Assembly (NCBI GenBank): GCA_035710305.1
Contig: DASTDQ010000142.1
Coordinates: 1 to 58,673 of the forward strand
DNA length: 58,673 bases
Source of the DNA: Vicinamibacterales bacterium
GTDB taxonomy: Bacteria > Acidobacteriota > Vicinamibacteria > Vicinamibacterales > UBA2999
Direction of reading: 5' to 3'
Shown here: in pieces, positions 9,259 through 26,476 of the stretch
Layout: the number at the start of each line of letters is the position of its first letter
Numbering within the stretch: position 1 is the stretch's first letter
Position numbers and translations under genes: made by a program
Notes under the pieces: generated by a model
What the model was told of the DNA's origin: nothing
What the model saw: the letters and a program-made list of their open reading frames with translations, nothing else
The model's database searches: none

Positions 9259-10860
9259 CTAGTGGGCCCTGCGGCGAGCCAGCGAGCGGACGAGCGAGAC
9301 CATCTGGCCGCGGTCGCTTGCTTGAGCGACCGCTTCGCGCAGTGCGACGTGGCGTCGCGCGACGGCCCGCGCGAGGGATTCGTCAACAGAACGCATCCCG
9401 GGTCCGCCGTCCTGTTGCATGCGCGCGAGCCTGTCGAAGTCGCCTGCCTCCAGCGCCCCGCACACCGCGCTGGTCGCCAGCACGACGTCCTGAACCAGCG
9501 TCCGTCCTCCGCCGATGCGACGAAGGCTGCGATAGCCGATTGCGGCTCTGAACGAGGCGGCCATTGCGCGGCGAACATGAACGTCGGAACCGGACAGCAT
9601 GCGCAACGCATCCACCGTGGTCGATGCGACGACGCCGACGATGACCAGCCGCCCGCCCGCCGCCGCCAGGACGGCTGACTGAAGCGCCTGTTCGGACTGG
9701 AGCCCGGTCACGAGAAGGATATCGGGAGCTTCCTGTGAGGCGCGGCGGATGGCGGCAGCGAAGTCTTTCTCGCTTCCGCTGATCGTTCGCCGGCTCACGA
9801 ACACGCCTGCGATGTCCTCGAGAGAGCGGCTGCGGCGCTGAAGCGAGATCAGGTACCCGCCGCGGTCGCGACTGCTCCAATCAGCCACGGCTGCCGCCAG
9901 CATCTCGACATCGGTCTCGTTCCCCGCCGCCACGACCACGAGACCCTGCGCCTCGCAGGCCAGGCGGATCTGACGCGGGATGTGCTTGTGCAAGAGGCGC
10001 AGCGACGTTGTCGGTCTGAGCTGAACGACGAGCCCCGTGCCGTCCAGGTCGCTGAAGACGCGGCAGCTGACGTAGCCGAACTCCTCGTCTTCGCGGACCC
10101 ACTCACCGTCCGGGCGCGGCTGCCATCGGCCGTCGCCGCCACGAGAGAAGATGTTTGCGACCTCGTCCACCACCGACGCATCGACGATCTCGTCGCTGAC
10201 GGGCTGAATGCGATCGTCGATTCGGGCCGCAGCATTCGAACCGGCGCGGAGAAACATCATGCTCGCGCCGAGATCGGCTGCCTGGCGAATCCACGCGGCA
10301 AGGTCCCGCGGCGGTTCAGGGCGGGACCGCGACTGTCGAACAGGTTCCGGGGTGTAAGACGGAGCGGGTCGCTCTATGTGCCTGACAGGTTCCGGCGGCG
10401 CGAACGGCCTTGCGTCGAAGCGCACCTCAGGCGCCGGTGCGACTGCGATCGGAGGCGCGGCGACAGCTTCGGGTTCGGCAGGCACGAAGACCGGCGGATG
10501 TTCGACGACCGGAATCGCTGGTGCGGGTTCCAGAACAGAAGCCGCGTTGTCAGGAAGCGAGACGATCAACTCGATCGAAAAATCGTCCCCGACGCGCTCG
10601 GCTCGGGCAGTGAGCGGATGGGGAAAAGACTCCGAATGCACCGGTTCGCTGACCACGCCGTTGGCACTCAGTTCCTGACGACCGGCACCAGACAGAATCT
10701 GTTCCGCCAGCGCTTCGACAGCGTTGATAGAGAGGACCGCAGAGGCGACGTCCTGGCGGCGCGCACCGGCGAGTACGTGCGGGCGTTCCCCCGCTCTCAT
10801 CACGAGGCGTTCACCACCTGCGCGTTCGAGTGCTGCGCAGAGCGACGGCATCAGGCTCAT
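9259..10860 (-). CDS. PilT/GspE-family ATPase homolog with all catalytic motifs degenerate (predicted pseudo-ATPase). Two PilT-type N-terminal domains are separated by a Pro/Ala-rich linker.
   Basis: The C-terminal 250 aa align colinearly with PilT (IGGGRTLVQDVVLATSAV, GMRSVDESLARAV). The Walker A GPTGSGKST position reads AAGNETDVE. Walker B/catalytic DIILVGEMRD reads DILLVTGLQS. The His box TGHLVFGTLHT reads GGRLVIVGVVAS. Confidence 0.8.
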   Translation of the reverse strand: MSLMPSLCAALERAGGERLVMRAGERPHVLAGARRQDVASAVLSINAVEALAEQILSGAGRQELSANGVVSEPVHSESFPHPLTARAERVGDDFSIELIVSLPDNAASVLEPAPAIPVVEHPPVFVPAEPEAVAAPPIAVAPAPEVRFDARPFAPPEPVRHIERPAPSYTPEPVRQSRSRPEPPRDLAAWIRQAADLGASMMFLRAGSNAAARIDDRIQPVSDEIVDASVVDEVANIFSRGGDGRWQPRPDGEWVREDEEFGYVSCRVFSDLDGTGLVVQLRPTTSLRLLHKHIPRQIRLACEAQGLVVVAAGNETDVEMLAAAVADWSSRDRGGYLISLQRRSRSLEDIAGVFVSRRTISGSEKDFAAAIRRASQEAPDILLVTGLQSEQALQSAVLAAAGGRLVIVGVVASTTVDALRMLSGSDVHVRRAMAASFRAAIGYRSLRRIGGGRTLVQDVVLATSAVCGALEAGDFDRLARMQQDGGPGMRSVDESLARAVARRHVALREAVAQASDRGQMVSLVRSLARRRAH

Positions 10861-11333
10861 AGGTCAGCGTCCTGCAGAGTAAGCGTGTCTTCGAATTGCA
10901 GCGCCGCCCGAAAAACCGGAGTCGGCGCGACCGCATGCATCGACGAACGTATGACCGTTGCGCGGAGAACCTTGCGCACCCCGCCGTAGCGAAGGAAGAC
11001 GTCCACGGTTCGACCCGGACACAGTCTCTGACTCGTTTCGGCCAGAAGACCGGTAGACGATAGATTCACGAGCCGCATCGGAAAACCGGCGACGGCCAGC
11101 CGTATCTCGACTTTGAACTGATGTGGTTCGCGCCGTGGGGCGCCGCGTCGTTCCTTGCGCTGAGGCGGAGGTTCCGGAACCGGATCCGGCTTTGCCTCTG
11201 CGGGGGACTGAGCTTTGGCCGCGGCAGGGCTCTGCCAGGACGCCTCCAGACCGGCGAAAAGGTCGTCCAGAGACGCCTTCTCGGGAAGCTTGACGACCAT
11301 CTCGTCGTCGGAATCAGAGCCCGGATCGCTCAT
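10857..11333 (-). CDS. PilZ domain protein (c-di-GMP receptor motifs intact) with acidic/Pro-rich N-terminus
   Basis: RxxxR (RGAPR) and (D/N)xSxxG (NLSSTG) motifs are present. Its stop overlaps the start of the downstream pseudo-PilT gene by 4 nt. Confidence 0.8.
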   Translation of the reverse strand: MSDPGSDSDDEMVVKLPEKASLDDLFAGLEASWQSPAAAKAQSPAEAKPDPVPEPPPQRKERRGAPRREPHQFKVEIRLAVAGFPMRLVNLSSTGLLAETSQRLCPGRTVDVFLRYGGVRKVLRATVIRSSMHAVAPTPVFRAALQFEDTLTLQDADL

Positions 11334-11345
11334 GACCGCACAAAG

Positions 11346-11361
11346 TGCAACCTGGCTGCCG
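11346..11361 (-). promoter_or_regulatory. Candidate sigma54 promoter (minus strand reads CGGCAGCCAGGTTGCA)
   Basis: GG-N10-GC spacing with TTGCA at -12. It lies only about 13 nt upstream of the annotated PilZ ATG. This implies a near-leaderless transcript or use of the internal ATG at 11300. Confidence 0.4.
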
Positions 11362-11521
11362 GCCCCTCGAGACGTTTCTTGCGCAGGGCGATGTCAGAGT
11401 TGCATTAGAATTCACAGTAATTCCCTTGAGTAACGACCTATCATAGGCGAACGATGACTGAGTCGTCCTCCCAATCCTTGAAGTTCCGGATGACTCGCGG
11501 ACGAGAGGGGAGAGGCCGTCA

Positions 11522-11887
11522 ATGGCGAAGATCCTAGTCGTCGAAGACGACGATGCGACGCGGGCCGGCTACCGGGAACTCCTGAGCCGGGCAGGGCATG
11601 AGGTTGTCGCCACGGCTACCTACCAGGAAGGGCGGCACGCCGTCGCTACCGAGAGCCCAGACCTCGTGATCGCGGACTTGCGGCTGGGTGGATTCAACGG
11701 ACTCCAGTTATTGCTGCTCAGCCCGCAGCCGATCCCGACGATCATCGTGACCGGGTTTCATGATCAGGTTCTCGAGGCTGAGGCCAGGCGCGCGGGGGCC
11801 GATTACGTCGTCAAACCTGTCTCCCCCTCCAACCTCATGACCCTGGTCCGCGAAAGGCTCGAGAGTCAGGCTGCATCTGGACGCTGA
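11522..11887 (+). CDS. Stand-alone response-regulator receiver (CheY-like)
   Basis: 121 aa. Acidic pocket VEDDD, phospho-acceptor Asp in VIADLRL, conserved T (IIVTG) and K (VVKP). Confidence 0.9.
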   Translation: MAKILVVEDDDATRAGYRELLSRAGHEVVATATYQEGRHAVATESPDLVIADLRLGGFNGLQLLLLSPQPIPTIIVTGFHDQVLEAEARRAGADYVVKPVSPSNLMTLVRERLESQAASGR

Positions 11888-12063
11888 CAAATCTGCGCGC
11901 GGGAACCCGCTACCCTGAGCGCCACGGGAGAGTTCGCTTCCACGCGACATCGAGAACGATGACGCCTCCAAGCGTTAGTCACCCGGAACGCAACCTTTCT
12001 CCGTCTCAAACGCGCCAATCCCCTTTCGTTTGCGGCCTTCTTGGGCCAATCTTGTGCTCTTAC

Positions 12064-12079
12064 TGGCGACTGGCTTGCA
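12064..12079 (+). promoter_or_regulatory. sigma54 (-24/-12) promoter TGGCGACTGGCTTGCA
   Basis: Matches TGGCACG-N4-TTGCW in geometry, with GG at positions 2-3 and TTGCA at positions 12-16. The GC dinucleotide lies 30 nt upstream of the ATG at 12109. Identical at 13/16 positions to the site at 14296. Confidence 0.7.
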
Positions 12080-12108
12080 GGAGTCGAACGGCCACTTCCC
12101 AGCGCTGA

Positions 12109-13815
12109 ATGTCGAGCATCAAGAGTCAGTTACCGGTCGCACAGGAACCGACCCTCTTCGAGGGAGCGGTCCGTGACCGCTCGTGGGAATGGCTGCTCGA
12201 ACTGCGCCGCCGGCTCAAGGTCGAACTGCTGTTGGTGGATGGACGCTGTTCGGTACTGCTGCCCGCGCGGGATCAGGCGGCCCGCCTTCAGGGTCTGCTC
12301 GAACAAACTGAACCGGTCCTGGTGTCTGCCATCAACGCGACGCTGCGCAGCAGGACAGCCCACGTCGTGGAGCTTGGCGGGCTTCAGGCAGTCTGCCTGG
12401 CGATATCACGTGATCGGGGAGACGCCGGGGCACTACTCGTCGGCAGGACCGTTCCGCCGGGGCAGGACCCACGGGCCTCCCGCGATCAGCTCCAACTGGT
12501 TACCTCGTGGTTGGCCACGGCCGTCGAGGCGCACCTTCTCAGCCCGCCGTCGCTTCTTTCGAGTGGCTTGAGTCGAGTCGCTCCCCTGGCCCAGGTGTTC
12601 GGCCAGTGCGCGGAACACGAATCCGATCGCGAGCTCGTTCGACTGTTTGGCGAGGCGGTCGCCGTCTGGCACGACATCGAAGTTTGCGGGTACGTGGAGA
12701 CGTCCAATGGCGGCTTCGCCAGAGATGTGACACTGCCCGGCGCGAACAAGGGCGAAAGGCCCCTGTCGATTTCCGCCGAGGAGTTGCCCGAGGCGACCGA
12801 ACTCACGCGACTTCCTCACGGGCATCTCGACCGATTCGGACTCCCGGTGAGTTGCGACGTTTACGTGAGCCGGTTGGCCCGGGCTGCGGAGCGATCGTGG
12901 CTCCTCGTCTTCATCGGAGCCATTGACGACTACGATCTTCAGCGCCTCGGGGCGTATCTGGCGTTGCTGGAGTTAGCCCTTGCCTTGTCGACGTCGACGA
13001 TGACCACCCGCGTGGTGAACACGATCGGCAGCAGGCTCAGCGACGTTCAGCAGACGCCGGAGATGCGCACCAGGAATGCACTAGAGGAGCTCCGCCGAAC
13101 GCTCGGCGCGTCTTCGGCCGGTCTCAAGATCGAGTCGCCAGACGGGGCGCCCTTGTTCGACGCGCTGAGCCCCGACCTTGCCGACACGTCTCGCGCGGAC
13201 CCAGGTGCGTCGAGACTAGTGCTCGTCAAACGGTCCGAACAGCATTACACTACGACCGTTTCGCTCGGTCGCTATGAGAGTCGGCAGTTCACTCCACGAG
13301 ACTACGCCGTGGCGAGCGCTGCGGCGACCGTATTCGGGCTCTGGGTTCCTGCGACGTTGAGCACCGCTGCGGGTCGGCGCGAACGCCGGGCCCTGCCGCG
13401 CGGGTTTCAAGAAGTAATTGAACGGTCGGCCTGCGAGGCAATCGAACGAGGTGTGCCCGTCGCAGTCGTTGTTCTGCTGATTCGAGATGCCATATCGCTG
13501 CCCGGGTCCACCCAGCGTTGGGTGGCGGGCATTCGGGGTCAAATGAGGGCGTCGGACGTGGCCGGGATGCTGACAGAAGGAGAAATAGGACTCCTGTTGC
13601 ACGACATCGCCAACGAGCAGGCCAAGGCCATCGCCGAACGCCTCAGGACGGTGGTGAGCGGTGCGCCCGGACGGGAGGCGATTCTGATCGGTGTGGCCAG
13701 TTGGACGCCAGGCCAGGACCCGGCCGATGGTATTGTTCGCAGGGCCCGTGCAGATGCACTCGCCGACGGTCGGCGTGCTCAAGTGTCCGTTTCACCTCGC
13801 GGAGTGAACAGCTGA
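12109..13815 (+). CDS. Multi-sensor protein ending in a degenerate GGDEF domain that keeps its RxxD I-site (predicted c-di-GMP receptor, not a cyclase)
   Basis: The C-terminal fold-level pattern is GGDEF-like. The A-site reads TEGEI instead of GG(D/E)EF. RASD sits exactly 5 residues upstream, as in canonical I-sites. The N-terminal about 400 aa looks like tandem GAF/PocR-like sensor modules (weak). Confidence 0.65.
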   Translation: MSSIKSQLPVAQEPTLFEGAVRDRSWEWLLELRRRLKVELLLVDGRCSVLLPARDQAARLQGLLEQTEPVLVSAINATLRSRTAHVVELGGLQAVCLAISRDRGDAGALLVGRTVPPGQDPRASRDQLQLVTSWLATAVEAHLLSPPSLLSSGLSRVAPLAQVFGQCAEHESDRELVRLFGEAVAVWHDIEVCGYVETSNGGFARDVTLPGANKGERPLSISAEELPEATELTRLPHGHLDRFGLPVSCDVYVSRLARAAERSWLLVFIGAIDDYDLQRLGAYLALLELALALSTSTMTTRVVNTIGSRLSDVQQTPEMRTRNALEELRRTLGASSAGLKIESPDGAPLFDALSPDLADTSRADPGASRLVLVKRSEQHYTTTVSLGRYESRQFTPRDYAVASAAATVFGLWVPATLSTAAGRRERRALPRGFQEVIERSACEAIERGVPVAVVVLLIRDAISLPGSTQRWVAGIRGQMRASDVAGMLTEGEIGLLLHDIANEQAKAIAERLRTVVSGAPGREAILIGVASWTPGQDPADGIVRRARADALADGRRAQVSVSPRGVNS

Positions 13816-14132
13816 TGGCGTTGGGGGATCGACGTTCTCGCCTGCGCCTTGAAGTCGTCGGCGCGTTGTGGGCCACGTTGGAGCTGACAGAGCCCGCCCG
13901 GGTGGTGAATATCAGCCGGGATGGGGCGCTGATCACGTCACCCGTCCCAATGACACCAGAGTCGGTCCAGCCGCTTCATCTGAAGCTGGAGGGACGAGAG
14001 GTTACCGTGGATGCACGCGTTCGCCACATCCGTCGTGTGTCCGGACCGGACGAGCCCATCCGGTACCTCGTTGGAGTCGAGTTTCTTACAGTCCCTCCCG
14101 CACTCGCCCGCGCCACGGAATGGCCGTCGTGA
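13815..14132 (+). CDS. Single-domain PilZ protein
   Basis: RxxxR (RSRLR) and NxSxxG (NISRDG) motifs. The ATG overlaps the upstream stop (TGATG). The longer ORF from 13518 is an out-of-frame overlap with the upstream gene. Confidence 0.8.
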   Translation: MALGDRRSRLRLEVVGALWATLELTEPARVVNISRDGALITSPVPMTPESVQPLHLKLEGREVTVDARVRHIRRVSGPDEPIRYLVGVEFLTVPPALARATEWPS

Positions 14133-14295
14133 GACGCCAAAATCGTGTGAGGGAAAGTCTACCGCCTAGAGTGTCTTAGCCCGGACTTGCTCAGACTTTC
14201 TGAGGGGCAGTCTCGAGATCAGAGTCTTCGCGGGCCAGTTCATAAACATCAGAATATAAAAGACTTGCGTCGGCAGACAAACGTCTGCTTGACGA

Positions 14296-14311
14296 TGGCG
14301 ACTCACTTGCA
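14296..14311 (+). promoter_or_regulatory. sigma54 (-24/-12) promoter TGGCGACTCACTTGCA
   Basis: Exact GG-N10-GC geometry with TTGCA. Lies about 65 nt upstream of the PilZ-EBP operon start. It is preceded by an AT-rich tract (14241-14262) and a palindrome (14273-14288). Confidence 0.7.
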
Positions 14312-14377
14312 GCCTCGGCAGACTTCGGGAAACCCGTAGGACATGAACGAGTCCGCGCGGTGTGCGCGAGGAGACCG

Positions 14378-14689
14378 ATGGAGGAACGGCGGCGGACCCC
14401 ACGGCAGCAGGTCGGTGAGGAATTCGCAAATCTGCCAGGGAACATGAGCGTCCGGGTTCTGGACATCAGCACCGTCGGCGTGCTGATTCAGTCCCCCCGC
14501 CTGCTCAACCCGGGATCACGCGGAAGTCTGCGCTTCACGCTTGCCGGAGCACCCTTTGCGGCAGACATTCAAGTTCGGCGCGTGTCCTCGGCGTCCGACA
14601 ACGGATCCGGGTACCGCATTGGTGCGACATTCGTGGGAATGACCATGGATCACCGACAGCTGATTGAACGGTTCATGAACAATGATTGA
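14378..14689 (+). CDS. Single-domain PilZ protein
   Basis: RxxxR (RRTPR) and DxSxxG (DISTVG) motifs. The ATG at 14378 follows a GAGGAG Shine-Dalgarno sequence. An alternative GTG lies at 14360. The 3' end overlaps the EBP start by 8 nt. Confidence 0.8.
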   Translation: MEERRRTPRQQVGEEFANLPGNMSVRVLDISTVGVLIQSPRLLNPGSRGSLRFTLAGAPFAADIQVRRVSSASDNGSGYRIGATFVGMTMDHRQLIERFMNND

Positions 14690-15908: not shown

Positions 15909-15924
15909 AGGCACGGTTGTTGCC
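15909..15924 (+). promoter_or_regulatory. sigma54 (-24/-12) promoter AGGCACGGTTGTTGCC
   Basis: GGCACG-N4-TTGC is a near-perfect match to the consensus. Lies about 80 nt upstream of the GTG start at 16004, which has a GAGGAG Shine-Dalgarno sequence. Confidence 0.7.
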
Positions 15925-19933: not shown

Positions 19934-19956
19934 TCGTTTCTCTCGCTGCTCCGCGA

Positions 19957-21363
19957 TCAGTCGGGTCCGATCCTCTTCAACTTCTCCACCAGCGTCGTCC
20001 TCTTGATGCGCAGCAACTCGGCGGCGCGATTCCGATTTCCACCGGTGCGGTCGAGTGCGCGCCCGATCAAGTCACGCTCGACGGCGGCGAGGTAGGCCGG
20101 CATGTCCATCCCTCCTTCCGGAAAGTCCACGAGGGGCATGGCCGTTGCCGGGGGGGTCACCTGGATTTCGGCAGGCAGGTCCGCCATTTCAATATGCTGC
20201 CGTCCCGCGCTCAGGGCCACCGCCCGCTCGACAGCGTTTTCCAGCTGACGGACGTTCCCGGGCCACTGATAGGCCATCAACGCACGCATCGCATCCTGCG
20301 ATACCTGCATCTGCGACCCGGGCGCAAACTTCTGCAGGAAGTGCTGCGCGAGAACCGGGATGTCATCGCGCCTGTCCCGCAATGGTGGCAAGTGAATGGG
20401 AATCACGTGAAGTCGGTAGTAGAGATCTTCCCGGAACGTTCCTTCGGCGACCATTCGCGCAAGGTCAGAATTGGTGGCTGCGATGACCCGCACATCCACC
20501 TTGATCGTCTGGTTGTCACCGACCCGCTCGAACTCGCGCTCCTGGAGTGCGCGGAGCAGCTTCATCTGAAGAGCGGTACTCATGGTCCCGACTTCGTCGA
20601 GGAAGAGCGTCCCCTTGTGGGCCTGCTCGAAGCGTCCCTGACGTGCGCCGATCGCGCCCGTGAAGGCCCCGCGCACGTGCCCGAAGAGTTCAGCCTCGAG
20701 CAGAGTCTCGGGTATCGCGCTGCAGTTCAAGGCGACGAATCGATGTGCGCGGCGAGGGCTGTTGTGGTGAATCGCTCTCGCCACGACCTCCTTGCCGGTT
20801 CCCGTCTCTCCGGTGATCAGGATCGTGCTGCTGGATCGCGCCACCGTCTCCAGAAGATGAAACAGCTTCTGCATTGGCCGGCTGCGGCCGAGGATGCCGC
20901 CGAACTGGTAGCGGTCCTCGAGCTGTGAACGGAGGTACGCGTTTTCCGATCGGAGCCGCCGATCTTCAAGCGCCTTGTGCAGCACGTGCGAGAGCTCGTC
21001 GAACTGAAAGGGCTTGGCGATGAAATCCGATGCGCCCCGCTTGATGGCGTCGACCGCGTCCTTGACGGTGCCGAAGCCTGTAATGACGATGGCCACGATG
21101 CCGGGGTAGCGCTCTCGAGCGGACTCGATAACCCTGGACCCATTGACTCCGGGCAGCCTCAAGTCCGTAATCACCACGTCGAACGCAAACTTCTCCAGGA
21201 GCTCCAGCGCCCGTTCTCCGCTTTCGGCCTGAACGACCTCGAAGCCACGCTCGGTCAGGCGTTCGGCCATGACCCCGCGAAGCGCGGTTTCGTCGTCCAC
21301 GAACAGGATATGGGGGATGGTTCCGGCGGCAGCCACAGCGCCAATATCTTGACACAGCCCCAA
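19957..21363 (-). CDS. NtrC-family response regulator (REC + sigma54 AAA+ + Fis HTH)
   Basis: Receiver ILFVDDE...VITDLRLPG, GETGTGKE, canonical GAFTGA, and C-terminal HTH GGNRNRAAELLRIKRTTLVEKLKR. The start could be TTG 21363 or GTG 21336. Confidence 0.9.
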   Translation of the reverse strand: MGLCQDIGAVAAAGTIPHILFVDDETALRGVMAERLTERGFEVVQAESGERALELLEKFAFDVVITDLRLPGVNGSRVIESARERYPGIVAIVITGFGTVKDAVDAIKRGASDFIAKPFQFDELSHVLHKALEDRRLRSENAYLRSQLEDRYQFGGILGRSRPMQKLFHLLETVARSSSTILITGETGTGKEVVARAIHHNSPRRAHRFVALNCSAIPETLLEAELFGHVRGAFTGAIGARQGRFEQAHKGTLFLDEVGTMSTALQMKLLRALQEREFERVGDNQTIKVDVRVIAATNSDLARMVAEGTFREDLYYRLHVIPIHLPPLRDRRDDIPVLAQHFLQKFAPGSQMQVSQDAMRALMAYQWPGNVRQLENAVERAVALSAGRQHIEMADLPAEIQVTPPATAMPLVDFPEGGMDMPAYLAAVERDLIGRALDRTGGNRNRAAELLRIKRTTLVEKLKRIGPD

Positions 21364-21365
21364 AC

Positions 21366-21393
21366 TAAGGATCGGTCAGGGAGCGGCCGATAC
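21366..21393 (+). promoter_or_regulatory. Possible sigma28/FliA-type promoter TAAG-N16-GCCGATAC
   Basis: Resembles TAAA-N15-GCCGATAA. Lies 80 nt upstream of the HTH gene that precedes the FliA-type sigma gene. The same 8-mer also occurs by chance elsewhere, so this is weak. Confidence 0.3.
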
Positions 21394-21472
21394 AGCAGTC
21401 GAACGAGCTCGGCGGGTCAAAGTGGTCCGCCGGCGTTACTAACGGCCGTCTCCAGGAGGCCCGTGAGACTAT

Positions 21473-21688
21473 ATGGACCGCCAGACCCTCTCAATCATGA
21501 AGGCGTGTGAAGCCGTCGGAGTCAGCCGGCGAACCATTTACAACTGGATTTCTGCCGGCAAGGTCGAATACGTCCGGACAGCCGGGGGCTCGATTCGCAT
21601 CTTCGCCGACACCCTGTGGCGCGACGCAGCGACGCCGGCCCGGACCCAGGAATCGGATTCTCGAACGGCGCCTGGACAGCACGCGTGA
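21473..21688 (+). CDS. Small MerR/excisionase-type (HTH_17-like) DNA-binding protein
   Basis: The stretch ACEAVGVSRRTIYNWISAGKV matches the HTH_17 pattern. 71 aa. Confidence 0.7.
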   Translation: MDRQTLSIMKACEAVGVSRRTIYNWISAGKVEYVRTAGGSIRIFADTLWRDAATPARTQESDSRTAPGQHA

Positions 21689-21924
21689 GCGTCCCTCAGG
21701 GGGTCGATGGCGTCGGCGACGTGCCGGCTAACCTCGACCTTCAGGCGTTGTTTCATCGCCTGAACAATCAGCTCGGGTCTCTCCTCGCCCACGCCGAGCT
21801 CCTCGAAACCAAGGCCCCTGACGACGTCAATCGGGCGCGCGCGGCCCAGGTCGTCAGGAGTACCCTCGATGCGATGGGCACCGTTCGAGCGATTTATCAT
21901 CAAACGGACCCTTCCGGCGAGTAG
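21685..21924 (+). CDS. DHp-only mini-protein with a HisKA_2-like H-box (no ATPase domain)
   Basis: FHRLNNQLGSLLAHAELL resembles the HRxxNxLQ H-box. The GTG start overlaps the upstream stop (GTGA). The longer ORF from 21616 overlaps the HTH gene. Confidence 0.5.
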   Translation: MSVPQGVDGVGDVPANLDLQALFHRLNNQLGSLLAHAELLETKAPDDVNRARAAQVVRSTLDAMGTVRAIYHQTDPSGE

Positions 21925-22179
21925 CCGGCTCGTTTCAGCACATCGACGGCGAGCCCTGATTCATTCCTGAGAATCTACTCAGATCCGTAATTCTGCTGTC
22001 ATCAACTTGGCGGGGACGTTGTTGTTTCCGTCAATCTGTTGGCGATTTTAGCGGTCTTTTGCCCGATTGGAAGCTCGACAGAATCGTCAGACGAGCACTG
22101 GTAAGTGGCTGTCCTGATAGTCACTTAGCTCGGGTTTTCTCACGAGATTGCACTGGGATGCGCGCCGATTCGCCCCAGT

Positions 22180-22195
22180 TGGTACCACGGTTGCC
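22180..22195 (+). promoter_or_regulatory. sigma54 (-24/-12) promoter TGGTACCACGGTTGCC
   Basis: GG-N10-GC geometry with TTGC. The GC lies 26 nt upstream of the ATG at 22221. The GGAGG Shine-Dalgarno at 22208-22212 would sit in a short leader. Confidence 0.6.
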
Positions 22196-22220
22196 TCATG
22201 TGGCGCCGGAGGTCACATTC

Positions 22221-23231
22221 ATGCGCCCCCAGATCAACTCCGAGAACCCGAGGGTTCTCGCCAGCATCCCCTTCGTGGAGCAGCTCGCCCGGCGAGTCGC
22301 CGCCACCATGCCCCATTCCATCGACATCGGCGACCTGGTGCAGGACGGGGTCATTGGGCTCATCGACGCCGCGCATCGCTTCGACGAGGCGAGAGGCATC
22401 AAGTTCGAAACCTTCGCGGAACGCCGCATTCGCGGCGCCATGATTGACGCACTACGGAAGGATGCCTGGCCCCGCGGAGTCCGACGGCAACGCCGCGAGC
22501 TCGAAGCCGCGCGCGAGGAGCTCCGGAGAGAGCTGGGGCATGAACCGTCGCTGGCGGATCTGGCGGCCAAGGTCGGGTCGGACGAAAAACGGCTGGGCAG
22601 GACGATTGTGCGAATCAACGCCATCGAATCGACCTCTCCACTTGCCAACAACGATCACCTCGACGAGTCGACGCTGCCCACCGCGTTGATACCTTCAGAG
22701 CCCGAACAGCCGGACGCCGCGTACGAGCGACAGGAAACGAAGGACCGCGTGTGCGCGGCCATCGCTTCGCTTCCGCCGCGCGAGCAGAAGGTGATCGGCC
22801 TCTACTACTACGGCGAAGCCACGATGAAGCAGATCGGCGCTGAAATCGGCGTGAACGAGTCCCGCGTGTCGCAGCTGCATGCGCGCGCCATCAGACGGCT
22901 TCGCGATGCGCTCGGCACGCTGGTGCCCGGAGCCGAGGTCGCCAAGGTCATGAGGAGCGCGATCCTCGAGTTCCAGCAGAAACCGCGTATGGCCAAGGCG
23001 ACATTGGACAGCCGCCAGGCGGTTGCCGGGACAGAACGGCTTGGCGTCGTGGTCAACTACGCCAGCGCTTCACGAACGTTGCGCAGCAAGTCGCCGAGCC
23101 GGAAGGGTTTGGCCAGCCAGCGGCAGCCGCTCTCCTCGAGAAAGCGCTCCGCGTCGGCTCCTGCCACGTCGCCGGTCACAAAGATGACGCGCCGGGCGAG
23201 CGCCGGCGTCGCTGCGGCAATCGCGCGATAG
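22221..23231 (+). CDS. fliA: FliA/WhiG-type (group 3) sigma factor with an about 100-aa C-terminal extension
   Basis: Region 2 DLVQDGVIGLIDAAHRFD...FETFAERRIRGAMIDALR. Region 4 YYYGEATMKQIGAEIGVNESRVSQLHARAIRRLR. The ATG at 22221 follows GGAGG. The frame stays open to 23231 and overlaps the convergent kinase gene by 175 nt. Confidence 0.8.
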   Translation: MRPQINSENPRVLASIPFVEQLARRVAATMPHSIDIGDLVQDGVIGLIDAAHRFDEARGIKFETFAERRIRGAMIDALRKDAWPRGVRRQRRELEAAREELRRELGHEPSLADLAAKVGSDEKRLGRTIVRINAIESTSPLANNDHLDESTLPTALIPSEPEQPDAAYERQETKDRVCAAIASLPPREQKVIGLYYYGEATMKQIGAEIGVNESRVSQLHARAIRRLRDALGTLVPGAEVAKVMRSAILEFQQKPRMAKATLDSRQAVAGTERLGVVVNYASASRTLRSKSPSRKGLASQRQPLSSRKRSASAPATSPVTKMTRRASAGVAAAIAR

Positions 23232-24607
23232 AGCGTGATCCCATCGACCTTGGGCATCTTCAGATCGCAGATGACCAGGTCGTAGCTGCGCTGATGCACG
23301 CGGGCGAGCGCTTCCTCGCCATCGCCCGCGTGATCGACTCTCAATCCTGCATCGATCAACGCCTCGCTGACGGCCATGGCGAGCGCGCGCTCGTCCTCCA
23401 CCAGCAGTACCGAGGCTCTTTGTGTCAACTCGCTCCTGGAGGCCGCCGCGCCTGGGGCTCGCGTCGTCGGGTCGACTGAGCCGGCCGGCAGTTCCACGGT
23501 GAACGACGCGCCACCAGTCGCGGGCGAGTCGACCCGAATGCTGCCTCCGTGTTCCTGAACGATGGCGTACGCCACGGTCAGTCCGAGTCCAGTGCCCTTA
23601 CCTGTTTCCTTCGTGGTGAAGAAGGGATCGAAGATCTTGCTCTTGACGTCCACAGGTATTCCTGGGCCGTCGTCTGTGACCTGGAGCACGACCGCATCTC
23701 GCTCGAGGTCGTGCCACGTTCGAAGCACCAGGGAGCCTCGGCCATGGGCGGCCATCATCGCCTGCTCGGCGTTGATGACCAGGTTCAAAAGCACCTGCTG
23801 AAGCTGGTGCGCGTCTGCCAGCACCTTCGGCAGGCCGGAAGCCAGAGCCGTGATGACCTCGATGTGACGACGATGCTCGTACGAGCGAAGCGCCAGAGTC
23901 TCGCGCACGACCTGGTTGACGTCGAGGAGCGAACGCGTGGACTGACGTTTGCGAGCGAAGGTCAGCAGGTTCCGGACGATGCGCGCGGCCCGCTCCGACT
24001 CGCCGAGAATCACGTCGAGGCCACGACGAGTCGTTTCGTCGGACGCTTTTTCAGCGAGCCTTTCAGCCCAGCTGAGAATGGTCGCCAGCGGGTTGTTCAA
24101 CTCGTGCGCGACCCCCGAGATCGTCTGACCGAGGGCAGCCATTTTCTCCGCCTGGAGCAACTGCTGATAGAGGTCGCGCGATTGCTCGTCGAGCCGCTTC
24201 CGCTCGCTGACATCACGAACGAGCGCTTCGACTCGAACACGCGTCCCGGAGCGGTCCCGGTCGGTCCGGGCAGTCACCTCGACCCAAATCGAGTCGCCGT
24301 CGTGCCGGCGGAGGCGCAGCAGATAGTCCGTGACCGCCCCATCGTTCAAGAGCCGATCGAGAAACGCGGTTCGCGCCGTCGCTTCGACGAAGCTCTCCGG
24401 TTCGAAGGGGAGGACGTTCTGGTCCGGTGTGTCGGCGGGGAAACCCAGGATCGACTTGAGGTGCGGATTCGCCGCCAGAGTTTCCCCGGGCCGATCATCG
24501 GCGCTGTCGATCGCCCCGATGTACACGCCCTCGTGCACAGCTTCGAAGAGCCGCGCGAAAGCGTTCGCCCTCTGGCCGTCTGGGACACGCCGCGGTACTG
24601 CCGCCAC
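23057..24607 (-). CDS. Hybrid sensor histidine kinase (PAS - HisKA - HATPase_c - REC)
   Basis: H-box SGVAHELNNPLATI, N/G boxes (NLVINAEQAM, DDGPGIP, GTGLGLT), C-terminal receiver VLLVEDE...VICDLKMP...AKPF. I chose GTG 24607 because the longer ORF to 24838 would overlap the upstream gene by 170 nt. Confidence 0.85.
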   Translation of the reverse strand: MAAVPRRVPDGQRANAFARLFEAVHEGVYIGAIDSADDRPGETLAANPHLKSILGFPADTPDQNVLPFEPESFVEATARTAFLDRLLNDGAVTDYLLRLRRHDGDSIWVEVTARTDRDRSGTRVRVEALVRDVSERKRLDEQSRDLYQQLLQAEKMAALGQTISGVAHELNNPLATILSWAERLAEKASDETTRRGLDVILGESERAARIVRNLLTFARKRQSTRSLLDVNQVVRETLALRSYEHRRHIEVITALASGLPKVLADAHQLQQVLLNLVINAEQAMMAAHGRGSLVLRTWHDLERDAVVLQVTDDGPGIPVDVKSKIFDPFFTTKETGKGTGLGLTVAYAIVQEHGGSIRVDSPATGGASFTVELPAGSVDPTTRAPGAAASRSELTQRASVLLVEDERALAMAVSEALIDAGLRVDHAGDGEEALARVHQRSYDLVICDLKMPKVDGITLYRAIAAATPALARRVIFVTGDVAGADAERFLEESGCRWLAKPFRLGDLLRNVREALA

Positions 24608-24668
24608 GACGCTATAGATTATAGGCGTCCCGCAGGTCGATTCTGCGAACGCCAGGCACGAATCTCTC

Positions 24669-25196
24669 TTAGTGCTGCTTCGCGTCGTGCGCCGGGCGCG
24701 GTGTCGGCGTCGACGAAGGGAAGGTCGAGCCGTACTTGCGATCGATCGCCGCACGAATCTGCGACGGCGACGCCCCCGTGTTGAAGAGCGCGAGAGCATC
24801 CAGGCCGACATCGATGCAGATCGCGCAGCCCATGCCATGGCTGTCCCACGCGGTCACTGTTCCATTGGCGGCGCGCGACTTCACGAAGCAATCATGGTTT
24901 CCGTTGTGACCGACGCGCTCGCATCCGCAGTAGCACGGAACGTATTTCAGCACTTCCGGATGTCGCGCGGCGAACTCGTACACCTGACGCACGGTCGCCA
25001 TCGGACGGGGCGGCGTGAACGGTACCGACGGAATGGCCGGCAGCGGTCCGCTGTGCGCCTTCACCGTGGCCGGCGGCGAGGGCGCGCGGGAGGTCTGCGC
25101 GTAGGTGTGCTGGACGAGGCCGATTCCTGCCGAGACGAGCAGAACCGTGCACAGTGTCAGTGTCAGGCCCCTTGTCGCCGTTGGTCTGAAAGGCAT
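24669..25196 (-). CDS. PCYCGC-motif protein (secreted or membrane-anchored, Cys-rich)
   Basis: Literal PCYCGCERVGH...HDCF...MGCAIC motifs and a hydrophobic N-terminal segment. The start is ATG 25196 (or 25244). Confidence 0.7.
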   Translation of the reverse strand: MPFRPTATRGLTLTLCTVLLVSAGIGLVQHTYAQTSRAPSPPATVKAHSGPLPAIPSVPFTPPRPMATVRQVYEFAARHPEVLKYVPCYCGCERVGHNGNHDCFVKSRAANGTVTAWDSHGMGCAICIDVGLDALALFNTGASPSQIRAAIDRKYGSTFPSSTPTPRPAHDAKQH

Positions 25197-25285
25197 GTGA
25201 CATCGTAACCCGATCCCCAGCTCATCCGCATGGAGTTCCGACACTTCCGCGCCGATACGCCCTAGAAGGCGAGGAGCGAGGACCC

Positions 25286-26476
25286 ATGCGATTGGCCGGG
25301 CGCAACGACGTTGTCCTGATGGTGGGACTGACGGTCGCCCTGTTTGTCATCTTCTCCCAGCCGGTCTCGCGGCTGCTCGACTACATCCGCGAGATCGAGG
25401 CGGCCCGGGGGCTTCACCTGCTGCCGGCCCTCTTCATCCTCGCGACCGTGTTCAGCTTCCACCAGATCCGGAAGCGGCAGGAGATGCGCGAGGAGGCCCG
25501 CGCCGTGGCCGCCGACGCCAACAGCGCGACCGAGCGCGCGTCCGAGATGTCGAGGCTCGTAGCCTTCGGCCATGCGCTGGCGCGTGCGATGGACAGCGAC
25601 TCGAGCGACTCGATTCGCGACGTCGCCGTCGCCCACATTCCGTTGCTCGTCCCCGGCAGGAATACCTGGGTGATGACCCGCGTGCGGAGCGGCCATTGGG
25701 AATCGCTCGTGGCCATCGGGGAATCGTCGCCCATCGAACGCGAGCGCGCCGCGCGCCGCGCGCTCGGGGAAGCCGAGCCGCTCGTCGGACTGGCCCCGAC
25801 TGAAATCTGCTTCCCGATGATCGTCGCGGGGACGCCGGAAGGCGTCCTCGGCGTCGCGCCGGAGCCTCCGCTCACCAACCATCAGCGAAGCGTGCTGAGC
25901 GCCGCCGCCGCGCTGCTCGCGGTGTCGCTCAAGAACTCCCAACTGCTCCGCGAAGTGCGCGAGAACAGCGTTCGGGACGGTCTCACGAGTTGCTTCAACC
26001 GGGGCCACGCACTCGAAGTGCTCGACGCCGAGATCAGGCGCGCGAGGCGTTCCAAGCTGCCGCTCTCGCTCGTCATGTTCGATCTCGACGGTTTCAAGGA
26101 GGTCAACGATCAGTACGGTCACCTCTGCGGCGACGCCGTGCTCGCATCCGTTGGAACGAAGATGAAGTCGGAGCTGCGGGGAAGCGATCTGAAGTGCCGG
26201 TGGGGCGGCGACGAGTTCATGGTCATCCTGCCGGACACGCCACTCGGCGGAGCACGACAGGTGTCAGAGAATCTGCGCCGGCAGATCGAAACGCAGACCG
26301 TCGCGTGGAACGACGACTACGTGAAGGTGACTGCCAGCTTCGGGATCACCGTGATCAACCCGGCCGATCAGGATCCCCTGACCGCGGTCGCGCGCGCCGA
26401 CGCCGCGTTGTATCGAGCCAAGGAACGCGGGCGGAACAACGTCCAGGTCCAGGAGCAGCCGGCCGCCCTCGTCTAG
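25286..26476 (+). CDS. Membrane-anchored diguanylate cyclase (GGDEF)
   Basis: Two N-terminal TM helices and a sensor region. Intact GGDEF with an RGSD I-site 5 residues upstream. Confidence 0.9.
   Translation: MRLAGRNDVVLMVGLTVALFVIFSQPVSRLLDYIREIEAARGLHLLPALFILATVFSFHQIRKRQEMREEARAVAADANSATERASEMSRLVAFGHALARAMDSDSSDSIRDVAVAHIPLLVPGRNTWVMTRVRSGHWESLVAIGESSPIERERAARRALGEAEPLVGLAPTEICFPMIVAGTPEGVLGVAPEPPLTNHQRSVLSAAAALLAVSLKNSQLLREVRENSVRDGLTSCFNRGHALEVLDAEIRRARRSKLPLSLVMFDLDGFKEVNDQYGHLCGDAVLASVGTKMKSELRGSDLKCRWGGDEFMVILPDTPLGGARQVSENLRRQIETQTVAWNDDYVKVTASFGITVINPADQDPLTAVARADAALYRAKERGRNNVQVQEQPAALV

Follow-up and report, generated by a model that had tools for sequence, protein, structure and literature searches.

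A conserved two-module regulatory locus of Vicinamibacterales with several c-di-GMP sensors and a catalytically dead PilT look-alike

We describe a chromosomal regulatory locus that is conserved in Vicinamibacterales (Acidobacteriota). Its roughly 20 signalling genes form a tightly conserved block, which includes a dead PilT look-alike and several c-di-GMP sensors and is made up of two separable modules. The window analysed is the complete contig (58,673 nucleotides) of a MAG from an uncultured soil acidobacterium. The analysis establishes what the genes are, whether their catalytic sites are intact, the start/stop codon overlaps, the conserved promoter motifs and the modularity. Every part belongs to a known family, but the arrangement itself is undescribed: the earlier note knew of no described system with this architecture, and no published description was found in the searchable literature. 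We give slightly better than even credence to the reading, predicted from sequence, that the two modules are wired into a transcriptional cascade running from sigma-54 to sigma-28, in which c-di-GMP serves as the internal signal.

Gene content of the two modules

The gene content of positions 9259-26476 (Table 1) agrees with the earlier note, which had listed three PilZ genes with intact motifs, a dead PilT homolog, a degenerate GGDEF protein with a preserved I-site, two GGDEF proteins with intact A- and I-sites, three sigma-54 activators, a lone receiver, a hybrid kinase, a DHp-only protein and a FliA-type sigma factor. All of these were confirmed, and the domain calls (PilZ, GGDEF and AAA+ among them) are backed by HMMs, profiles or predicted folds.

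Table 1. Features of the locus (positions in the window; promoter and enhancer entries are predictions)
Feature	Position	Strand	Details
Module A	9259-19098		three PilZ pairs, GAF-GGDEF cyclase, EBP2, receiver
Pseudo-PilT	9259..10860	minus	full PilT fold, aa 187-533
PilZ1	10857..11333	minus	Pfam PilZ 26.6 bits; RxxxR and NxSxxG intact
Sigma-54-like site	11346..11361	minus	CGGCAG-N5-TTGCA; directly upstream of PilZ1; partly conserved
Decayed sigma-28-type motif	11430..11447	minus	before PilZ1
Stand-alone receiver	11522..11887	plus	acceptor Asp present
Sigma-54 site	12064..12079	plus	TGGCGA-N5-TTGCA; upstream of degenerate GGDEF gene; kept in orthologous spacers
Degenerate GGDEF protein	12109..13815	plus	three PAS/GAF-like domains and degenerate GGDEF
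PilZ2	13815..14132	plus	Pfam PilZ 30.6 bits; motifs intact
Candidate enhancer for an activator	14152..14288	plus	conserved AGAC/GTCT inverted repeats, GAAAGTCT...AGACTTTC and GGCAGACAAACGTCTGC
Sigma-54 site	14296..14311	plus	TGGCGACTCACTTGCA; invariant save one position in 13 diverged spacers
PilZ3	14360..14689	plus	Pfam PilZ 46.7 bits; motifs intact
EBP1	14682..15809	plus	sigma-54 activator; Walker A/B and GSFTGA
Sigma-54 site	15909..15924	plus	AGGCAC-N5-TTGCC; upstream of GAF-GGDEF; conserved
GAF-GGDEF diguanylate cyclase	16004..17536	plus	A-site GGEEF and I-site RIFD intact
EBP2	17905..19098	plus	sigma-54 activator; EBP1 paralogue, architecture alike
Module B	19161-26476, probably on to 28813		NtrC-type regulator, hybrid kinase, DHp-like, HTH, sigma factor, second cyclase
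Dabb-domain protein	19161-19514	minus	same operon as NtrC-type gene, downstream
Basic 140-aa protein	19511-19933	minus	same operon, downstream of NtrC-type gene
NtrC-type response regulator	19957..21363	minus	REC, sigma-54 AAA+, HTH_8; third sigma-54 activator
Sigma-28-type motif	21365..21392	plus	CTAA-N17-GCCGATA; upstream of HTH_17 gene
HTH_17 protein	21473..21688	plus	small, DNA-binding (excisionase/MerR-like)
DHp-like mini-protein	21721..21924	plus	alternative start 21685
Candidate enhancer for NtrC-type regulator	21995..22045	plus	conserved GTCA-N6-TTGGC and CGTCAA-N4-TTG(A/G)CG
Sigma-54 site	22180..22195	plus	TGGTAC-N5-TTGCC; 26 nt before sigma-factor ATG; conserved, 59 spacers
FliA/WhiG-family (sigma-28) factor	22221..23231	plus	TIGR02479 FliA_WhiG 199.9 bits, cutoff 189.6
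Hybrid histidine kinase	23057..24600	minus	PAS, HisKA, HATPase, REC
PCYCGC-motif protein	24669..25244	minus	upstream of hybrid kinase
Sigma-28-type -10 element	25251..25258	plus	GCCGATAC; upstream of second cyclase
Second diguanylate cyclase	25286..26476	plus	GGDEF and I-site RGSD intact
FabA-like dehydratase; GAF-GAF-SpoIIE phosphatase	26473..28813	minus; plus	outside the span first described

All three PilZ proteins of module A score above the Pfam cutoff (22.5 bits), and RxxxR and (D/N)xSxxG are intact in each of them and in every orthologue. Each PilZ gene overlaps its partner at the start/stop codons (3/3 pairs): the stop of PilZ1 overlaps the start of pseudo-PilT (ATGA), the PilZ2 ATG shares bases with the stop codon of the degenerate GGDEF gene (TGATG), and PilZ3 and the EBP1 start overlap by 8 nt. 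From these overlaps the three receptor pairs (PilZ1/pseudo-PilT, degenerate-GGDEF/PilZ2 and PilZ3/EBP1) are predicted to be translationally coupled.

Pseudo-PilT carries, ahead of the PilT fold, an extra, nearly invariant PilT-NTD-like domain (aa 1-100) and a disordered Pro/Ala linker (aa 104-181). It has no match in Pfam, and its NCBIfam pilT_fam score of 87.8 bits, although across the full profile, is far below the cutoff of 319 bits; however, it matches PilT by PDB profile (2ewv, E=2.8e-22) and its AF2 model resembles PilT/PilU (Foldseek E ~1e-17). The catalytic sites are lost: GPTGSGKS of Walker A is replaced by AGNETDVE, and neither the Walker B Glu nor the His box is kept. The degenerate GGDEF protein is likewise missed by Pfam GGDEF (merely E=0.1), but its family profile matches PDB diguanylate cyclases (3ign, E=1e-4), with RasD...TEGEI aligned opposite RqsD...GGEEF, and the top match of its AF2 model is a phytochrome-linked cyclase (5llw, E=1e-12). 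TEGEI stands in place of GG[DE]EF, and the I-site RASD (RxxD) is invariant across the family. EBP1 and EBP2 are PspF-like in build, with no N-terminal sensory domain; hhalign did not confirm their putative DNA-binding domain (E=0.04), and the C-terminal HTH of EBP1 is divergent and missed by Pfam HTH_8.

In module B, the DHp-like mini-protein has no match in Pfam, but its profile aligns to the DHp of the neighbouring kinase (hhalign probability 96%, E=2.4e-9) with the His in register, and its H-box, LFH(R/Q)LNNQLG..LAHAELL, is conserved. The FliA/WhiG-type factor has a C-terminal basic tail of about 100 aa, and its gene shares 175 nt at the 3' end with the kinase gene; the kinase start is uncertain (the ORF is open to 24838). 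The second cyclase appears, as read from its sequence, to have a hydrophobic N-terminal segment. Elsewhere on the contig, two SpoIIE phosphatases and one GAF protein are scattered.

Conservation and modularity

Gene neighbourhoods had been proposed as a test of whether these genes co-occur, and they do form a conserved set: the gene order is shared by at least 12 species-level MAGs and many soil contigs. Identities in the relatives are 90-94% for EBP1, 86-92% for EBP2 and 85-95% for PilZ2, versus 72-82% for the housekeeping protein Mfd. Synteny comes largely from fairly close relatives with shared housekeeping flanks, so independent support for linkage is mainly from a few of the related loci compared (labelled L016, L017, L098, and L052 and L064, which share a deletion).

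These loci do not support a single self-contained 17-kb unit, as had been claimed. In L052 and L064, Dabb lies no more than about 220 nt beyond Dus; therefore the region corresponding to 8654-19160 (the SIS gene plus pseudo-PilT to EBP2) is missing as a block. In L017 the module A block is found amid unrelated genes, with a pseudo-PilT identity of 38%. Module B stays with its right-hand flank, and the right border once placed at 26476 is arbitrary, as the FabA-like and GAF-GAF-SpoIIE genes beyond it always accompany module B, with synteny as strong as that among the module B genes themselves. The PilZ1–pseudo-PilT pair, adjacent in the distant relatives L016, L017 and L098, is the deepest conserved core. 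In one subclade there is an extra pair of PilZ-like and EBP genes.

The patchy presence of module A among related genomes and its different context in L017 might suggest a horizontally mobile genomic island. But neither integrase or transposase genes nor a tRNA or direct repeats at the flanks were found, GC (0.61-0.675) is as in the remaining contig, and module A proteins diverge in step with host genes. Mobility is thus extremely unlikely, and the word island, used earlier for the span, does not apply in the mobile sense.

Predicted promoters

Five sites with sigma-54 promoter geometry had been reported in front of operons of the locus. Sigma-54-like matches across the whole window are at chance level (18 observed versus 18.3 expected), but GG/GC is intact in 10 sites, five of them in non-coding DNA (10% of the window), and all five are sense-oriented and at most 120 nt upstream of genes of the block (0.55 expected, P ~3e-4). 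Four of the five are invariant in orthologous intergenic regions that otherwise diverged. Counterparts of the site before PilZ1 occur in L016, L017 and L098; in L017, sigma-54-like sites precede PilZ1, the degenerate GGDEF gene, EBP1 and REC. Four module A operons are predicted to bear sigma-54 promoters. There is no sigma-54 site upstream of EBP2, where a conserved region (TTGACC...GGCAGACTTATT) is found, and rpoN is absent from the contig.

The sigma-28-type motif before the HTH_17 gene is the window's sole exact match to CTAA-N17-GCCGATA, and it is conserved across 34 loci. Where the motif before PilZ1 has decayed here, relatives have CTA[AC]-N17-GCCGATT, oriented to PilZ1–pseudo-PilT. A search of the loci compared (0.81 Mb) with CTA[AC]-N16-18-[GC]CCGAT[AT] gave 51 matches: 34 before HTH_17, 14 before PilZ1 and three elsewhere. 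The second cyclase gene is preceded by CCGATA[AC] in 20 out of 23 orthologous upstream regions versus a background of 1.6%, but the -35 part is not conserved there. Both the sigma-54 and the sigma-28-type promoter assignments are predictions from the motifs and their conservation.

Could the genes be independent regulators, kept together by inherited gene order and forming no common circuit, their density reflecting the regulator load of a large soil genome? The housekeeping flank Mfd-SurA-NusG-Dus is kept in most related loci, the other signalling genes of the contig (the SpoIIE phosphatases and the GAF protein) are scattered, and the window-wide count of sigma-54-like matches is that of chance. 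However, module A is gained or lost as a block and reappears in other surroundings with protein identities of 34-74%, sites of both promoter types are found repeatedly at operon starts and stay conserved amid diverged spacer, and three PilZ genes overlap the start/stop codons of their partners. We consider this explanation improbable.

In another scheme (precedents in PMC7005675 and PMC8325347), the FliA/WhiG-type factor and the small helical protein encoded upstream would form a c-di-GMP-armed sigma/anti-sigma switch of the RsiG-WhiG type controlling a programme of development or surface attachment, and the remaining locus would only set c-di-GMP levels. The sigma-28-family factor does lie directly downstream of a two-helix small protein in a c-di-GMP-rich locus, and a cyclase is among the predicted sigma-28-type targets. 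But the alignment, when inspected, had no RsiG motif E(X)3S(X)2R(X)3Q(X)3D in the small protein, which aligns with histidine-kinase DHp and has the His conserved, and RsiG has so far been reported only from Actinobacteria (PMC8325347). Such a switch is quite improbable here.

A predicted cascade and its possible output

The sigma-28-type motifs before HTH-DHp, the second cyclase and, in relatives, PilZ1 link the two modules in the predicted sigma-54 to sigma-28 cascade. In module A, EBP1 and EBP2 would activate the sigma-54 promoters of their own module, the cyclase promoter among them, and c-di-GMP-loaded PilZ partners would gate both activators in trans; together these steps would make a feedback switch. 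Gating of EBP1 by PilZ would not be universal, since PilZ2 and PilZ3 are absent from L017. In module B, the hybrid kinase, possibly via the DHp-like protein, would phosphorylate the NtrC-type regulator, which would turn on the sigma-28-type factor; this factor would then transcribe HTH-DHp, the second cyclase and (in relatives) PilZ1–pseudo-PilT.

The same parts could be the master regulators of a flagellum or a type IV pilus, a motility organelle whose structural genes lie elsewhere in the genome, in a FleQ/FlrA, FleSR/FlrBC, FliA-type hierarchy; the locus would then be one more ordinary example of a known regulatory scheme. Its sensor-less sigma-54 activators, NtrC-type two-component pair, FliA-family factor behind a sigma-54 promoter and PilT-like protein all fit, and the sigma-28-type motifs match the flagellar consensus as quoted in PMC8325347. 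But Pfam finds no flagellar, pilus, EPS or chemotaxis structural genes on the entire 58.7-kb contig (the earlier note had seen none in or next to the span), no flagellar, pilus or chemotaxis genes lie within 10 kb in any related locus, the predicted sigma-28-type targets are only regulators, a cyclase and the dead PilT, and EBP1 and EBP2 have no FleQ-type N-terminal domain. It also counts against a motility locus that the cultured Vicinamibacteraceae have been described as non-motile. We regard it as rather unlikely.

The logic elements of the two-module cascade are individually precedented: a sigma-54 to sigma-28 cascade, c-di-GMP-linked enhancer-binding proteins, a PilZ protein combined with a secretion-type ATPase plus a degenerate GGDEF receptor, and a link between a sigma-28-family factor and c-di-GMP. 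For example, in a non-flagellated bacterium a sigma-28-family factor drives pilus and cyclase/phosphodiesterase genes (PMC8325347). That the span has no obvious effector genes, as had been stated, holds for structural effectors but is otherwise debatable: PilZ1–pseudo-PilT, as the sole component that is not regulator-like and the deepest core, may itself be the output adaptor. In that role a catalytically dead PilT hexamer and PilZ1, perhaps joined by the degenerate GGDEF protein and PilZ2, would work on a machine resembling a type IV pilus, or on some other target, whose genes would lie outside the locus, an arrangement that we liken to PilB-PilZ-FimX (PMC8389850). HD-GYP genes adjoin the PilZ–pseudo-PilT pair in L017 and L098.

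Genes of the span and their family assignments

The window (58,673 bases) represents one entire contig of a Vicinamibacterales MAG. Its high GC content, which is even along its length (0.61-0.68), yields many spurious open reading frames, so a provisional gene set was built from codon-position GC and then tested with HMMs (see the table). Pfam alone missed three of the genes (the PilT homologue, the degenerate GGDEF protein and the DHp-like mini-protein), for which NCBIfam, PDB profiles, AF2 models with Foldseek, or hhalign were required. The inventory that the earlier note had read from the DNA of this span (three PilZ proteins with intact motifs, a catalytically dead PilT homologue, a degenerate GGDEF protein with a preserved I-site, two GGDEF proteins with intact A- and I-sites, three sigma-54 activators, a lone receiver, a hybrid kinase, a DHp-only protein and a FliA-type sigma factor) was borne out by these searches. 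One candidate ORF (21538-21903, minus strand) was dropped: it translates into junk-like sequence, and the opposite strand here encodes the conserved HTH_17 and DHp-like proteins. No tRNAs were found in the window, and an Rfam scan of its long spacers gave no riboswitch and no other RNA match.

Genes of the signalling span, with window positions and the searches behind the assignments
Gene	Position	Strand	Assigned by
pseudo-PilT (catalytically dead PilT homologue)	9259-10860	minus	NCBIfam, PDB profile, AF2 with Foldseek
PilZ1	10857-11333	minus	Pfam
REC (lone receiver)	11522-11887	plus	HMM
dGGDEF (degenerate GGDEF protein, 568 aa)	12109-13815	plus	PDB profile, AF2 with Foldseek
PilZ2	13815-14132	plus	Pfam
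PilZ3	14360-14689	plus	Pfam
EBP1 (sigma-54 activator)	14682-15809	plus	Pfam
GAF-GGDEF	16004-17536	plus	Pfam
EBP2 (sigma-54 activator)	17905-19098	plus	Pfam
Dabb protein	19161-19514	minus	
basic 140-aa protein	19511-19933	minus	
NtrC-type regulator	19957-21363	minus	
HTH17 (small HTH_17 protein)	21473-21688	plus	
DHp-like mini-protein	about 21721-21924	plus	hhalign
FliA/WhiG sigma factor	22221-23231	plus	TIGR02479
PAS-HisKA-HATPase-REC hybrid kinase	23057 to about 24600	minus	
PCYCGC protein	24669-25244	minus	
GGDEF2 (second GGDEF protein)	25286-26476	plus	

All three PilZ proteins pass the gathering cutoff of Pfam PF07238 (26.6, 30.6 and 46.7 bits for PilZ1, PilZ2 and PilZ3; cutoff 22.5). Each carries the c-di-GMP-binding motifs RxxxR and (D/N)xSxxG, which are kept in every orthologue, for PilZ1 including those of the distant loci L016 and L017 (related loci on MAG or metagenome contigs, as are all L-numbered loci here); by domain and motifs they are putative c-di-GMP receptors. 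Each PilZ gene overlaps the start or stop of a partner gene: ATGA for PilZ1/pseudo-PilT, TGATG for dGGDEF/PilZ2 and 8 nt for PilZ3/EBP1.

Pseudo-PilT has no match to Pfam T2SSE (PF00437) at E<=5, and it aligns end-to-end with the NCBIfam family pilT_fam (TIGR01420) at 87.8 bits, far below the cutoff of 319.1. A profile of its family retrieves the PilT structure 2ewv from the PDB (E=2.8e-22) with an alignment that spans the full PilT length. In this alignment A(A/S)xxExxxE stands in place of GPTGSGKS, Gly in place of the Walker B Glu, and hydrophobic residues in place of the His box. Walker A (GxxxxGK[ST]), the catalytic Glu of Walker B and the His box are replaced in pseudo-PilT and in all relatives of >38% identity; GxxxxGK[ST] is still present in remote relatives (24-28% identity). 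The AF2 model (pLDDT 70) begins with an extra N-terminal domain (aa 1-100), followed by a disordered linker (aa 104-181), and has the two-domain PilT fold (NTD and RecA-like CTD), and its top Foldseek matches are all PilT/PilU (E 7e-18 to 1e-16). The first 60 residues are almost invariant. The family counts 263 proteins at E<=0.001 in a word-indexed search and 3134 at E<=0.001 in an exhaustive search of 50%-identity representatives. All 12 genome matches fall in Vicinamibacteria or Acidobacteriota MAGs.

Two of the GGDEF proteins have both sites intact: GAF-GGDEF (PF00990, 151.8 bits; I-site RIFD, A-site GGEEF) and GGDEF2 (150.2 bits; I-site RGSD, A-site GGDEF). We consider dGGDEF to be no cyclase because its Pfam score is below the cutoff (12.8 bits vs 23.8, E=0.1) and its A-site reads TEGEI. 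Its I-site RxxD is kept, with R480 and D483 invariant in 21 homologues. Homology to the GGDEF fold is supported by a family profile that matches diguanylate cyclases in the PDB (3ign, E=1e-4; RasD-x5-xEGEI opposite RqsD-x5-GGEEF) and by the AF2 model (pLDDT 75), which shows three PAS/GAF-like domains plus a GGDEF-like domain and has the phytochrome-linked cyclase 5llw (E=1e-12) and DosP as its best Foldseek matches.

The three sigma-54 activators score 210-246 bits against Sigma54_activat (PF00158), with Walker A/B present and the loops GSFTGA, GSFTGA and GAFTGA. Pfam found a C-terminal Fis-type HTH (PF02954) in the NtrC-type regulator and gave no PF02954 match in EBP1 and EBP2; the C-terminal region of these two is covered by full-length alignment to PspF/NorR models, and a weak hhalign match to the NtrC HTH (E=0.04) lies in the expected register. 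Apart from its AAA+ domain, each of EBP1 and EBP2 has only a C-terminal domain and no sensory domain; both align end-to-end with PspF. In one subclade (e.g. L002 6623-8677; also L003, L008, L012, L014 and L015) an insertion between the REC and dGGDEF genes encodes two small proteins of ~100 aa and a third sensor-less activator (EBP3); the small protein adjoining EBP3 scores 22.3 bits against PilZ and has both RxxxR and NxSxxG.

The sigma factor exceeds the curated cutoff of TIGR02479 FliA_WhiG (199.9 vs 189.6 bits); regions r2 and r4 pass in Pfam, and r3, at 24.0 bits, is just below its cutoff of 25.3. This ORF and the hybrid-kinase ORF converge and share 175 nt at their 3' ends (23057-23231), and L052 and L064 have a comparable overlap of about 150-160 nt; transcriptional interference is possible. 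The basic tail of the sigma factor (roughly 100 aa) is open in relatives as well, and is either translated or an antisense-frame effect of the kinase receiver domain.

The DHp-like mini-protein hits no Pfam family, HisKA included, at E<=1. Its conserved core is LFH(R/Q)LNNQLG..LA(H/C)AELLE, and hhalign (96.2% probability, E=2.4e-9) pairs it with the adjacent hybrid kinase's DHp, keeping the phospho-acceptor His in register; this His is invariant in 17 aligned orthologues. We also considered an anti-sigma factor like RsiG, whose c-di-GMP motif E(X)3S(X)2R(X)3Q(X)3D lies on a coiled coil (PMC8325347); that motif is missing from the alignment consensus.

Two modules in related loci

All 12 genome loci and the metagenome loci share the order PilZ1-pseudoPilT / REC / dGGDEF-PilZ2 / PilZ3-EBP1 / GAF-GGDEF / EBP2 / Dabb-basic-NtrC, so the genes do co-occur across relatives. 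Loci anchored on the sigma factor give the remaining order, HTH17-DHp-sigma / kinase-(PCYCGC) / GGDEF2 / FabA-like / GAF-SpoIIE. In the same loci the identity is 90-94% for EBP1, 86-92% for EBP2, 85-95% for PilZ2 and 83-87% for REC, vs 72-82% for Mfd. The locus is among the most strongly conserved regulatory blocks of Vicinamibacterales, with activators better conserved than Mfd. Synteny alone is no proof of linkage, however, because the housekeeping flank Mfd-SurA-NusG-Dus is also common to these loci.

Loci with other borders are more informative about linkage. In L052 and L064 (sigma factor 81-83% identical) the Dabb gene follows Dus within about 220 nt, and a single block comprising the SIS gene and all genes from pseudo-PilT through EBP2 is missing. 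The diverged locus L017 (identities of 38% for pseudo-PilT, 34% for dGGDEF, 74% for EBP1 and 69% for EBP2) has the block PilZ1-pseudoPilT / dGGDEF / EBP1 / REC / GAF-GGDEF / EBP2 between an HD-GYP regulator on one side and a SpoIIAA-like gene, which adjoins EBP2, and a transporter on the other, with no gene of the housekeeping flank. In L016 and L098 a PilZ gene again lies directly upstream of pseudo-PilT. The absence of the block from L052 and L064, its relocation in L017 and the recurrence of the pair in L016 and L098 therefore divide the span into module A (9259-19098, pseudo-PilT to EBP2) and module B (19161-26476, probably extending to 28813). The PilZ-pseudoPilT pair constitutes the most ancient core of the locus. 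The borders of module A show no tRNA, integrase, flanking repeat or GC shift as a sign of a mobile element.

The proposal that 9259-26476 forms one regulatory unit thus holds as far as conservation and, very probably, co-regulation are concerned, but the unit is made of two modules and has other borders. Overall, a conserved and co-regulated two-module signalling locus is a reading in which we have high confidence.

In the two most distant loci, the neighbours of the PilZ-pseudoPilT pair include genes for HD-GYP (HD_5) c-di-GMP phosphodiesterases (L017 11861-12868; L098 323-1144, where the gene adjoins the pair); the window's own locus has no EAL or HD-GYP gene.

Predicted sigma-54 and sigma-28-type promoters

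A search for TGGCAC-N5-TTGCW with up to 2 mismatches finds 18 matches in the window, a total equal to chance (18.3). Ten of these have intact GG and GC, and five out of the ten lie in the 10% of the DNA that is non-coding: all five are within the span, in sense orientation and at most 120 nt ahead of a gene start (0.55 expected; Poisson P about 3e-4). Four of them (before dGGDEF, PilZ3, GAF-GGDEF and the sigma factor) show no or almost no change in orthologous spacers that have diverged elsewhere, and this conservation is stronger evidence than the positional count. The fifth, before PilZ1, is only partly conserved, but distant loci (L016, L017 and L098) have a sigma-54-like counterpart in the equivalent position. 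L017 has such sites before four operons of the block. The five sites noticed earlier can thus be kept as predicted sigma-54 promoters by their GG-N10-GC geometry, their position and, for four of them, their conservation.

Conserved inverted repeats lie upstream of the PilZ3 promoter (AGAC/GTCT-type) and of the sigma-factor promoter (CGTCAA-N4-TTGACG), and are candidate enhancers. The word CAGACTT, considered as a possible common enhancer element, shows no enrichment over the window as a whole (6 copies vs 4.4 expected); five of the six copies are in module A (14152-14325 and 17682-17842), four in spacers ahead of PilZ3 and EBP2 and one within the PilZ3 coding sequence. These copies fall within conserved blocks, and CAGACTT may be a shared operator half-site. 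Just upstream of EBP2 is a 26-nt tandem duplication in perfect register (17834-17885; ACTTATTCCCTCTGAATTAGCAAAGA twice, 92% identical), found in none of the aligned relatives.

Sigma-28-type motifs are seen at three places. The spacer between the NtrC-type regulator and HTH17 contains CTAA-N17-GCCGATAC (21365-21392), the sole exact match in the window, in agreement with the flagellar sigma-28 consensus (-35 TAAA, -10 GCCGATAA; PMC8325347). Among the related loci (0.81 Mb), CTA[AC]-N16-18-[GC]CCGAT[AT] occurs 51 times: 34 upstream of HTH17 (34 loci), 14 upstream of PilZ1 (14 loci, oriented towards PilZ1-pseudoPilT) and 3 elsewhere. The PilZ1 copy in the window has decayed to GGTCGTTA (11430-11447). 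Upstream of GGDEF2, GCCGATAC is present at 25251-25258, and CCGATA[AC] is found in 20 out of 23 orthologous regions, vs a background of 1.6% per 150 nt; here the conservation is limited to the -10 part, and the -35 part is not conserved. Judging by these motifs, the predicted targets of module B's FliA/WhiG-type factor are thus the operon immediately before its own gene, the cyclase GGDEF2 and the PilT-like operon of module A.

The site in the REC/PilZ1 spacer of L001-L015 (e.g. L001 9272-9299) is at the same time a direct repeat, GCCGAT-N5-GCCGAT, with its halves one helical turn apart; given this spacing it could instead, or in addition, be recognised by a response regulator.

A possible c-di-GMP switch and its precedents

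These assignments suggest the following circuit, built around control by the sigma-28-type factor and the sigma-54 activators. In module A the sensor-less EBP1 and EBP2 would drive the sigma-54 promoters, gated in trans by PilZ proteins carrying c-di-GMP from the GAF-GGDEF cyclase; this cyclase itself lies behind a sigma-54 promoter, for which reason we propose feedback. In module B the hybrid kinase would control the NtrC-type regulator, perhaps with the DHp-like protein as an intermediary, whether by His-phosphotransfer or by dimerisation. The regulator would then fire the sigma-54 promoter of the sigma-28-type gene, whose product would raise GGDEF2, HTH-DHp and PilZ1-pseudoPilT. By analogy with PilB-PilZ-FimX, the dead PilT and PilZ1, perhaps with dGGDEF-PilZ2, might form a c-di-GMP-sensing complex acting on a target outside the locus. 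As the best explanation overall we hold this with slightly more confidence than doubt; its specific protein-level steps are tentative.

In the PilB-PilZ-FimX system of Xanthomonas type IV pili, PilZ binds the N-terminal domain of the ATPase and bridges it to a degenerate GGDEF-EAL receptor (PMC8389850). The locus likewise combines a small PilZ protein, a multidomain putative c-di-GMP receptor with a degenerate GGDEF domain, and a protein of the secretion-ATPase family that has an additional domain at its N terminus; PilZ1 is translationally coupled to the PilT-like protein with its nearly invariant extra domain. The differences are that the ATPase is PilT-type here and has lost Walker A/B and the His box, whereas the Xanthomonas one is PilB-type and active; that the receptor has an I-site and no EAL; and that no pilus genes are neighbours, as they are in Xanthomonas. 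PilZ1 also keeps its c-di-GMP-binding motifs, whereas the PilZ orthologue of Xanthomonas is not known to bind c-di-GMP.

The FleQ/FlrA, FleSR/FlrBC and FliA hierarchies of Pseudomonas and Vibrio are cascades in which sigma-54 activators, an NtrC-type two-component system and a sigma-28 factor control flagellar genes. There c-di-GMP is an input to the sigma-54 activator FleQ (PMC8125075). The same elements, c-di-GMP input included, recur here; however, there are no flagellar genes, EBP1 and EBP2 lack the FleQ N-terminal domain, and sigma-28 control is predicted for regulators, a cyclase and pseudo-PilT. While c-di-GMP binds FleQ directly, the input proposed here would come via separate PilZ proteins and not via the AAA+ domain.

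A sigma-28-family factor is also tied to c-di-GMP in a non-flagellar setting in Rubrobacter (RsiG-WhiG), with a regulon of type IV pilus and cyclase/phosphodiesterase genes (PMC8325347), and the targets predicted here (a PilT-like operon and a cyclase) are parallel. Unlike that system, this one belongs to another phylum and has no RsiG motif, its small upstream protein is DHp-like, and its sigma gene lies behind a predicted sigma-54 promoter.

Sensor-less enhancer-binding proteins under control in trans are exemplified by PspF-PspA and HrpR/S-HrpV. EBP1 and EBP2 resemble PspF in being sensor-less, and EBP1 and the subclade EBP3 are each preceded by a small co-translated protein; here, though, control in trans is proposed to lie with a PilZ c-di-GMP receptor, an arrangement for which no precedent turned up in our literature searches. 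Full-text searches also found no description of a PilZ/activator pair, of a dead PilT paired with PilZ or of this locus, and nothing on point for c-di-GMP in Acidobacteria or for Vicinamibacterales motility.

The view that the architecture has no described counterpart agrees with these searches, but every logic element of the locus has a known precedent, and nothing in it overturns current understanding. No pilus or flagellar genes are nearby, as the earlier note said in describing a circuit with no effector genes, but one part of the locus may itself be an effector. The observation is confirmed and extended, and its interpretation partly supported. It is possible, if doubtful, that the locus is an undescribed kind of c-di-GMP switch, in which small PilZ proteins would regulate sensor-less activators in trans in a c-di-GMP-dependent manner, as PspA does PspF, a dead PilT hexamer with its own PilZ partner would be a c-di-GMP-controlled pseudo-enzyme effector, and the sigma-54 to sigma-28 cascade would be uncoupled from flagella.

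Vicinamibacterales are among the commonest and least cultured soil bacteria, and to our knowledge almost nothing is known about their lifestyle decisions. The locus offers three testable ideas: PilZ proteins as external c-di-GMP sensors for sigma-54 activators; a dead PilT family, always PilZ-paired, as a pseudo-enzyme effector; and a second phylum, after Actinobacteria, in which a flagellar-type sigma factor would serve a purpose other than flagella. The promoter motifs, being conserved, provide search patterns for the regulon, and hence the outputs, in complete genomes.

Two further groups of genes on the contig deserve mention. Two SpoIIE/PP2C-type phosphatases are encoded at 27008-28813 (plus strand) and at 37619 to about 38800 (minus strand), one of them with tandem GAF domains; no STAS or anti-sigma partner for them was found on the contig. 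A NusG paralogue of 180 aa (7058-7600), for which Pfam finds the NusG N-terminal domain only, lies between the SurA-like and Dus genes. Specialised NusG paralogues are usually dedicated to particular long operons. This one is 83-92% identical among relatives and better conserved than its neighbours.
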